From Candidatus Desulfatibia profunda (GTDB taxonomy: Bacteria > Desulfobacterota > Desulfobacteria > Desulfobacterales > UBA11574), in contig JACNJH010000129.1 in assembly GCA_014382665.1 (NCBI GenBank), positions 305-64,304 on the forward strand: DNA of 64,000 bases, read 5' to 3'. The notes beneath the pieces were generated by a model. It ran no database searches. It was not told the origin of the DNA and saw nothing but the letters and a program-made list of their open reading frames with translations. Both the position numbers and the translations under genes were made by a program. Below, in pieces: positions 62,688-64,000 of this stretch. Every line of letters begins with the position of its first letter. Within the stretch, counting starts at the first letter, position 1.

Positions 62688-62735
62688 ATGAATGACGGGC
62701 CGATAGATATGGGCGAGCGTTTTCCCGGGAACATA

Positions 62736-62815
62736 GGGGACGTTGGTGAAAAGTTGAAATGTTGAAATGTTTATGTGATCAGGAGAAATATTGTCAATCT
62801 TTCACCAACGTCCCC
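62736..62815. repeat. 16-bp perfect-stem hairpin with an octamer-word loop, downstream of the helicase
   Basis: GGGGACGTTGGTGAAA (62736-62751) pairs with TTTCACCAACGTCCCC (62800-62815). The loop begins with GTTGAAAT GTTGAAAT. Confidence 0.85.
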
Positions 62816-63179: not shown

Positions 63180-63554
63180 CTTTTCACCATTTGTGAGTCA
63201 GAGGAATAAATCCCCAAAATTTAGACAGATTATGGTCGAGTGGTCGTCATTGCCGAGAATCTGAACACTGGCGCGAAAAAACGCGTCAGAAATCATCTTC
63301 AAAAAGAGAAGGAAGGAGACTCCATGGGAAAGAAATACACTCTGGAAGACGGGATGGAGTTGGGAAATATAAGGGACGGGCATTGATATATTGATAAGAT
63401 TGTAAAAAATGGCCTAACATTTATATGGCCTTCACTTGTCAATAAAAAACTACTCCCATAGATCAGAAGGTGTAGAGAAATAACTTTCCGTCTTTGCATA
63501 TGATACTTTGACAAGTGATCCGTTCGTTTCGGCTTTTGGATTGAAGAACTTCCA

Positions 63555-63915
63555 CCCTAATTGAGCGTAAACAAAATGAAGAAAGTCAATTATTGTTAAA
63601 TATTTCAGAGTATAATAAGGATCATGCCAGCATGTTATAATCCGTGTATAAGTTAGTTATAAATTGCTAAATCAAATCTTCATTTTGTTTACCCTGCGGG
63701 AAAGCCCGCCGGGGGCGGACAAGCCGATGATACGCCATCTTCTTTGTTGCTCGTCTCGCCGAAGCGAGGCGCAGGCGGATCAAGGGCTTGCAGTAGCTTA
63801 CGGAGGTTTATCCCGCTTTATTAAGCGGGGCTTCGCCCTTGACGCCGCTCGTAGTGAAACGAAGATCCCGTTATCGGGGGAATCTGGCGCATCCTCGACT
63901 TTCGCTCAATTAGGG
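63555..63915 (+). other. nested inverted repeats enclosing an AT-rich loop and a GC-rich multi-hairpin domain; candidate structured RNA or mobile-element end
   Basis: The contiguous 28-nt segment 63555-63582 pairs in two blocks. The inner 15 nt pair with 63677-63691 and the outer 13 nt pair with 63903-63915. At least five short GC hairpins lie between 63692 and 63902. Confidence 0.5.
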
Positions 63916-64000
63916 TTCCAGTATAAGATTCCCTACAGAAGCTTGTTGGAGCGCAGCGGAAATCCCGCATAGCGGGGCTGCAGGGAGCTTTAAAAAATGG

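Follow-up and report, generated by a model that had tools for sequence, protein, structure and literature searches.

A structured inverted-repeat locus in Candidatus Desulfatibia profunda is very probably one copy of a non-autonomous element family common in Desulfobacterales

The window analyzed here is a 64,000-nt stretch of the Candidatus Desulfatibia profunda genome (C166:305-64304 in an assembly of 293 contigs, 3.85 Mb and 48% G+C). Near its right-hand end, at positions 63555-64000, lie nested inverted repeats that pair into a three-way-junction-like structure with a GC-rich domain full of short hairpins. The original prediction attributed these repeats to a structured non-coding RNA tied to a gene running off the window edge, with a transposon end as the main alternative. 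Our data indicate that positions 63555-63915 are very probably one complete, 361-bp copy of a non-autonomous element (miniature inverted-repeat transposable element, or MITE) family that is common in Desulfobacterales. The transposon alternative thus came close, but what very probably lies here is a whole non-autonomous element rather than one end of a transposon.

All repeats of the 63555-64000 region were recovered at their described coordinates when the sequence was reread and when it was passed through a repeat finder, which returned inner arms at 63564-63582 and 63677-63695 (19 nt, 95% complementary) and outer arms at 63554-63570 and 63900-63916 (17 nt, 94% complementary). The four capped GC hairpins, the longer-range pairing of ATCTTCTTT with AAACGAAGAT, and the hairpin at 63953-63981 are likewise present. 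The parts of the element, together with the 5-mers that bracket it, are as follows.

63550-63554, no strand: left target-site duplication TTCCA, of the form TNNNA, identical to the 5-mer at 63916-63920
63555-63567, plus strand: left terminal inverted repeat CCCTAATTGAGCG, 13/13 complementary to 63903-63915
63568-63582, plus strand: left arm of the inner (subterminal) inverted repeat, TAAACAAAATGAAGA, which pairs with 63677-63691 and corresponds to helix 3 of the consensus
63583-63676, plus strand: AT-rich loop of the inner hairpin, containing TATAAT and TGTTATAAT; the least conserved part of the family
63677-63691, plus strand: right arm of the inner inverted repeat, TCTTCATTTTGTTTA, which pairs with 63568-63582
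63692-63902, plus strand: GC-rich right-hand hairpin domain, composed of the conserved ~107-nt family hairpin (helices 4-6) and four insertions
63903-63915, minus strand: right terminal inverted repeat CGCTCAATTAGGG, 13/13 complementary to CCCTAATTGAGCG
63916-63920, no strand: right target-site duplication TTCCA, the same 5-mer as at 63550-63554

MITEs are small, roughly 50-600 bp, and carry no transposase gene; the 361-bp span falls within this usual size and lacks a transposase gene. Its sole open reading frame (ORF), a 102-aa frame at 63664-63972, has no Pfam match, and tblastn comparison with other copies gave only fragmentary matches with shifting frames. Protein homologues of this ORF would have spoken against the original prediction, an objection that does not arise here. 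We rejected the ORF as a real gene because it lacks a Pfam match and its frame jumps between copies; the element has no conserved coding capacity.

The left terminal arm CCCTAATTGAGCG also ends other elements, both in this genome and in related genomes. It belongs to an arm set, CCYNARYTGAKCG, that is represented ~110 times in the genome, mostly as inverted pairs 30-360 nt apart, and among 22 paired elements of this set 9 are flanked by a perfect 5-bp duplication and 9 more by a duplication with one mismatch. Among 78 non-redundant paired elements from other genomes, the flanking 5-mers are identical in 29, compared with 0-1 in shifted controls, and the 5-mer has the form TNNNA, its first base being T in 70/78 and its last base A in 72/78. 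Duplications of this kind are what cut-and-paste or copy-in transposition leaves behind when the cuts at TNNNA are staggered by 5 bp.

The distribution of the family is dispersed and patchy. The 24-nt left end, CCYYAATTGAKCRTAAACAAAATG, searched for with one mismatch allowed and with the reversed pattern as a control, turned up in 49/52 genomes of the host's taxonomic family, where the reversed control gave no match at all, and in 17/121 genomes sampled across the order. It was also found in GTDB representative genomes, in more than 120 stretches, of which almost all carry the label Desulfobacterales or that of a wider group containing this order (most are given as Desulfobacterales, Desulfobacteraceae, Desulfosarcina, Ca. 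Desulfatibia, Deltaproteobacteria or similar; a few contigs are otherwise labelled). Because of the duplications and this dispersed, patchy distribution, we infer that the family is mobile. The genes beside family copies are functionally unrelated to one another, and across 45 copies their orientation is random (right neighbor co-oriented in 18 and convergent in 13; left neighbor split 16:14), a result at odds with a role as leader or operator and in keeping with a selfish element. For the same reasons, the unrelated downstream genes and the random orientation, we rejected the 24-nt motif as a regulon or operator site. The proposed tie between the structure and the gene downstream thus did not hold: no sizeable gene lies downstream of the copy in the window, and there is no conserved link between structure and downstream gene.

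A 257-nt consensus was built from 41 distinct full-length copies. Its left half consists of a 13-nt end, an inner arm (TAAACAAAATGGGGAAA), an AT-rich segment of ~95 nt and the second inner arm (CCCATTTTGTTTAC), and its right half of a ~107-nt GC-rich imperfect hairpin ending in CGACTTTC, followed by the right end. The dominant form among the fetched loci is 252-259 nt long (35 copies in the 250-259 nt bin), and shorter forms of ~148 nt, with two 28-nt ends, and of ~64 nt also occur. The C. Desulfatibia profunda genome contains a second full-length copy (C276:7106-7363, 258 nt). A family profile (nhmmer) gave 58 matches in this genome, 2 of them full-length with the same terminal repeat and most of the others partial modules common to other repeat families; among the matches is a sister family that has this architecture but other ends, CCCTAATGTTGCA (C75, C285, C145). 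BLAST within the genome places individual segments of the region at varying numbers of loci (63554-63602 at 6, 63753-63796 at 8, 63830-63917 at 3 and 63941-63990 at ~12).

Two further repeat families were encountered in the same genome. One is a MITE family of ~210 nt whose ends, CCTAARYTGAGCG, are related and whose copies have 5-bp duplications (C89:3564-3771, C80:4301-4508, C153:7093-7301), of which there are roughly 50 arm copies, about 25 per end type; several contigs begin or end within repeats of this family or of the CCCTAATGTTGCA sister family. The other is a ~190-nt palindromic family with ends CTAACCCGGATATTTCAYG (C169:10050-10270, C87:1-200, C153:1130-1400), which has a central hairpin, ATCARGGGCTTGCAGTAG.., in common with the 257-nt family, showing that modules are exchanged between repeat families.

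The secondary structure of the locus is far more stable than expected by chance. RNAfold gave -169.1 kcal/mol for 63550-63995, compared with -132.3 +/- 6.3 for dinucleotide shuffles (z = -5.9), and the minus strand folds equally well (z = -6.8); the nested inverted repeats described in the original prediction were thus borne out both in their arms and in a fold that beats shuffles on either strand. In the predicted fold, a terminal stem closes off two parts, an AT-rich hairpin and a GC-rich domain of several hairpins. Family members are built to this three-way plan as a rule, their terminal-repeat stem leading into an AT-rich hairpin on one side and a long GC-rich one on the other, and the GC-rich domain of this copy is so dense in hairpins because four short GC-hairpin insertions have enlarged the family's long hairpin.

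Alignment of 24 diverse copies yielded an RNAalifold consensus of 53 pairs, with standard pairs in 96.5% of the cells. Double-sided changes were seen at 17 pairs, compared with 8.9 +/- 1.6 in column shuffles (0/500 reached 17), and when partners were slid by 1-3 columns the number of double-changed pairs dropped to 1-5. The covarying pairs lie in the terminal stem, the distal inner stem (the distal 3 pairs of helix 3 exchange GC for AU) and, most prominently, helices 4 and 5 of the GC-rich hairpin. At columns 174/232, for example, 11 copies have CG and 10 have UA, and at columns 182/225, 12 copies have GC and 11 have AU. Part of this signal reflects inherited differences between subfamilies, since related copies share ancestry. 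The substitutions are nearly all from one Watson-Crick pair to another, and on the plus strand wobble-type (G-U) cells number 12 and A-C-type cells 23, A-C-type cells on one strand being wobbles on the other. Watson-Crick changes without strand asymmetry, combined with strands that fold equally well, point to a constraint that is blind to strand rather than to one dedicated RNA gene, and argue for a fold at the DNA level or for tolerance in either transcriptional orientation.

Alignment to the consensus resolves the copy at 63555-63915 into a 257-nt backbone, 87% identical to the consensus in its right part and 56% identical in its AT-rich loop, and four insertions of 19-31 nt, all on the plus strand.

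63702-63720, plus strand: insertion 1, 19 nt, with GCGGG/CCCGC and CCGCC..GGCGG hairpins; found neither in the consensus nor in the C276 copy
63749-63778, plus strand: insertion 2, 30 nt, a CTCGC-CGAA-GCGAG hairpin module; absent from the consensus
63799-63822, plus strand: insertion 3, 24 nt, in the apical loop, a CCCGCTT-TATT-AAGCGGG hairpin
63849-63879, plus strand: insertion 4, 31 nt, a GAAACGAAGAT CCCG-TTAT-CGGG module

Each of the four capped hairpins falls in or overlaps one of these insertions, and all four occupy positions that are unpaired in the consensus fold, namely the junction, the apical loop and both sides of a single internal loop. In other genomes, family copies (L046, L050, L051, L066, L121, L146, L155) carry insertions at the same four unpaired positions, the inserted sequence being the same in some copies and different in others. 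In this genome, 8 copies of the ~190-nt palindromic family have the insertion 2 module ahead of their central hairpin, the same form of insertion 3 is present in L051 and L061 from other genomes, and insertion 4 is common to C128, C78 and C14 in this genome and to L050 and L033 in others.

The hairpin at 63953-63981 does not belong to the element. It is a copy of a separate mini-repeat, ..TTGGAGCGMAGCGGAAATCCCG-loop-CGGGG.., which BLAST found 12 times and a motif search 19 times in this genome, in some cases nested in other repeats.

63931-63986, plus strand: separate dispersed hairpin repeat CCCTACAG..GCTTGTTGGAGCGCAGCGGAAATCCCG-CATA-CGGGGCTGCAGGG, outside the transposable element and recurring in the genome

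More generally, GC-rich mini-hairpins of 19-35 nt, such as TTGGAGCGMAGCGGAAATCCCG-NNNN-CGGGG, occur as presence/absence insertions in three repeat families (window 63941-63990; C153:1299-1335; C13:~60-136; C223:~2180-2259). They sit in loops in the copies examined, and no target duplication was seen there.

How the element might move is suggested by its ends. We propose that it is inserted by a DDE-type transposase, supplied in trans, that would bind the CCYYAATTGAKCG ends and make cuts staggered by 5 bp at TNNNA sites, and that the fold would be kept by selection on the copies that propagate. Ends of the type CCYTAA/CCTAAA, repeats of ~13 nt and an AT-rich 5-bp duplication form an IS1380-like signature; IS1380-type elements have ends that start with CC, inverted repeats of ~14-16 bp and a 4-5 bp duplication, a description that the element fits. 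The left inverted repeat of ISEcp1 is CCTAGATTCTACGT, and its insertions are flanked by AT-rich 5-bp duplications such as TAATA and TAAGA (PMC6061673). The element's ends, variants of CCTAAATTGAGCGT, likewise start with CC and match CCTAGATTCTACGT at 10/14 positions, and the terminal repeats of ~13-14 bp and the AT-rich 5-bp duplication are features in common with this group, to which L167, an IS1380-family element in a relative with ends ACCTAAAAYCTGCAATT, also belongs. Unlike IS1380 elements, however, the element has no transposase, no IS1380-family gene was found with its ends, and the interior of L167 has no similarity to the family consensus. Assignment to an IS1380-family transposase is therefore tentative, a possibility that we hold to be clearly less probable than its negation.

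Several observations weigh against a MITE mobilized by a transposase in trans. Neither this genome, nor the 52 family genomes, nor two complete genomes yielded an autonomous element bounded by such ends. IS1380-type (PF13701) genes are present above the Pfam cut-off in 14/52 family genomes, yet none is flanked by the arms. Of the complete genomes, G135 carries 35 arms but gave no match to PF13701 or PF13843, and G008 carries 37 arms, none of them paired at insertion-sequence length. Metagenome contigs yielded no match to the exact pattern of an empty site. Finally, internal helices outside the transposase-binding ends covary too, which a purely neutral MITE would not need. As to the missing autonomous partner, Correia elements and bcr1 lack a known partner too, so its absence does not exclude membership in the MITE class; to our knowledge many accepted bacterial MITEs, Correia among them, have no known partner transposase.

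Other searches for the enzyme gave similar results. The arm pairs of G135 are all 236-336 nt apart, with none at insertion-sequence length, and G008 has no PF13843 match and only a sub-threshold PF13701 match. PF13701 is represented in the C. Desulfatibia profunda genome by one fragment at a contig end, without the repeat. No recurrent transposase was found among ORFs downstream of 56 solo left ends, no transposase candidate among ORFs beside 37 solo arms in this genome, and no DDE_Tnp_1_4 transposase gene bounded by the same terminal repeats. Two long candidates were rejected. The arm pair L068 is due to chance, the locus being DNA polymerase I. L151 (2338 nt, L151:3699-6036, on a contig labelled as a Thermoguttaceae MAG) has perfect ends and a perfect TAATA duplication but proved to be a family copy split in its central hairpin by a nested IS110-family element of ~2.1 kb encoding DEDD_Tnp_IS110 and Transposase_20 domains, frameshifted. 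IS110 elements may favor the central hairpin as a target.

Among known elements, the nearest functional analogue is bcr1, a group A bcr repeat of the Bacillus cereus group, which like the element in the window is a small, non-coding, dispersed element with 5-bp direct repeats (PMC3184786) and has a structure held by compensatory changes and no known transposase. It contains two independent stem-loops in a cruciform-like fold with compensatory changes, is transcribed, and has no known cognate transposase, and the compensation has been interpreted at the RNA level (PMC3184786). The two are not related in sequence, their hosts belong to different phyla, and bcr1 is about 155 bp long, compared with 257 bp for the Desulfobacterales family (361 bp for the copy at 63555-63915). 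In contrast to the RNA-level reading of bcr1, substitutions in the Desulfobacterales family, known here from sequence alone, show no strand bias.

Correia (NEMIS), ERIC and RUP/BOX elements are also short, intergenic MITEs with terminal inverted repeats, target duplications and long hairpins; bacterial MITE copies can carry promoter-like sequences, and BOX elements are modular (PMC3184786). Those elements, however, form simple hairpins, make TA or other short duplications and are confined to one genus or family, whereas the Desulfobacterales family has a two-hairpin, three-way layout, a TNNNA 5-bp duplication and extra GC hairpins in its loops. Repetitive extragenic palindromes (REPs and REPINs) with their Y1 transposases (RAYTs) are similar in being dispersed palindromic intergenic repeats, and the C. 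Desulfatibia profunda genome has multi-copy Y1_Tnp genes with 25-nt flanking repeats. REPs are 20-40 nt long and have neither terminal inverted repeats nor target duplications; the element has both, its duplication being 5 bp long. Because another 25-nt repeat, the AT-rich GGGACGTCCATAAATAAGTAAATAAC, flanks the Y1 genes, a REP/RAYT link was rejected.

A reading that we regard as rather unlikely is that the fold itself is what propagates, either as a structure-dependent element that moves as folded single-stranded DNA with an unrecognized enzyme or as a functional RNA, and that the mini-hairpins in the loops are a second mobile class targeting unpaired regions. The folded-DNA idea draws on the failure to detect a partner transposase even in complete genomes, and the second-class idea on the finding that GC hairpins have been inserted only in loops of the family and also occur inside two other repeat families.

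It is similarly improbable, and we consider it a weak contender, that the element is a mobile gene for a functional structured RNA (regulatory or ribozyme-like), in which the three-way junction is selected as RNA, the transposon features are its vehicle, and transcription starts in the AT-rich loop or comes from read-through. The strong compensatory covariation of helices 4 and 5, well beyond the terminal repeats, would suit such a gene, as would the high conservation of the GC-rich half across genera (87% here, with many invariant columns), the location of all observed insertions in loops and junctions with helices intact, and the reported transcription of bcr1, the closest analogue (PMC3184786). 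The equal folding of both strands and the lack of strand asymmetry in the covariation argue against it. TATAAT (63611-63616) and the extended -10-like TGTTATAAT (63633-63641), the latter speaking for such a gene, are both present inside the AT-rich loop, as the original prediction had it, but a consensus promoter scan of the plus strand of the loop found no -35/-10 pair, and TGTTATAAT is not kept in the 257-nt family consensus. Moreover, a transcript starting after TGTTATAAT would lose the left arms, leaving a marginal fold (z = -2.9). The patchy occurrence of near-identical ends across the order is what horizontal spread predicts, and no Rfam family matched 63550-64000, the extended contig end or the canonical copy, the only hits being sub-threshold, microRNA-like hairpins, none of them over 63550-64000 or in the canonical copy.

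Far less probable is a cis-regulatory leader or portable promoter for a downstream gene. The TATAAT and TGTTATAAT motifs of the AT-rich loop would fit this role, and several ~148-nt relatives end 10-25 nt before a ribosome-binding site and start codon (L030, L032, L034). Here, however, the ATG at 63997, although it does open an ORF that crosses the window edge, is followed by only 21 codons, and beyond it lie a 54-codon ORF fragment with no Pfam match and then a contig-end repeat.

63997-64000 (ending at window position 64062), plus strand: start of the 21-codon ORF, product MELLLDRKLKPQKPGPKKKAK*, as read past the window on contig C166; no credible partner gene

The random orientation of neighbors around the 45 copies and the lack of any common function among downstream genes also argue against a leader. 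We dismiss as having next to no chance a retron msr-msd, an IS110 bridge RNA or an IscB/TnpB guide RNA with its protein gene past the window, for although the nested inverted repeats superficially resemble a1/a2 and an IS110-family element lies inside L151, the latter is a secondary insertion that interrupts the central hairpin, the dozens of family copies have unrelated neighbors, Rfam gave no match, the upstream genes encode a PIF1-type helicase with HRDC and HTH_40 domains and a DUF6504 protein, and neither the vicinity nor the 493 nt that remain before contig C166 ends contains a reverse transcriptase, IS110, IscB or TnpB gene. The last 55 nt of the contig match exactly a sequence in the 5' flank of a transposase gene (Y1_Tnp + Bac_DnaA_C) on C65; this Y1 (IS200-like) gene lies ~450 nt away, behind another ORF. 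Extension past 64000, suggested as the way to find a partner gene, therefore yielded none, and the retron, bridge or guide RNA and long-leader proposals have no adjoining gene to match them.

No description of the family came up in literature searches on MITEs in Desulfobacterales and on IS1380-derived MITEs. Though apparently undescribed, the family is a repeat of a common type, an "orphan" MITE as Correia and bcr1 are, and not a new RNA machine. Its recognition removes a false lead, in that no retron, bridge RNA or riboswitch-like leader is present at the locus, and puts on record a MITE family well defined by its 257-nt consensus, its CCYYAATTGAKCG ends and its TNNNA duplication, which, with its sister families, is present in assemblies of uncultured Desulfobacterales. 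In the C. Desulfatibia profunda assembly such repeats lie at several contig ends and may contribute to assembly breaks; they can also create spurious ORFs, such as the 102-aa frame, and pass for structured RNA genes. A three-way junction with Watson-Crick covariation and no recognizable transposase makes the family a reasonable test case for why bcr1, Correia and ERIC elements conserve structure.

Other repeats and hairpins surround the element on contig C166. Directly upstream, positions 63414-63539 are a different dispersed repeat, with copies on C157 and C242 (82-87% identity) and a perfect 11-nt inverted repeat of its own (63432-63442/63508-63518). A near-perfect hairpin of ~80 nt at 62735-62815, ~50 nt past the stop codon of the PIF1-type helicase gene, has only spurious, sub-threshold matches to plant and animal microRNA precursors, and may be a terminator or another palindromic repeat. 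Beyond the window edge, an AT-rich stretch with no ORF (window 64100-64250; L001 2100-2250) precedes a strong hairpin like that of an intrinsic terminator at 64216-64240, CACCCTGCCGAACCGCGGCGGGGTG followed by T7; this may mark a small RNA, or it may be where a transcript from upstream terminates. The 25-nt AT-rich repeat GGGACGTCCATAAATAAGTAAATAAC lies on both sides of the Y1_Tnp + Bac_DnaA_C (IS200-like) gene on C65 and recurs at window positions 64439-64493 and ~59865 (C166:60169, minus strand) and on C116, C119, C128 and C188. Inverted doublets of it, ~66 nt long and with no gene, are also present, a layout like that of REPIN/RAYT systems, and contig C166 breaks inside one copy of this repeat.

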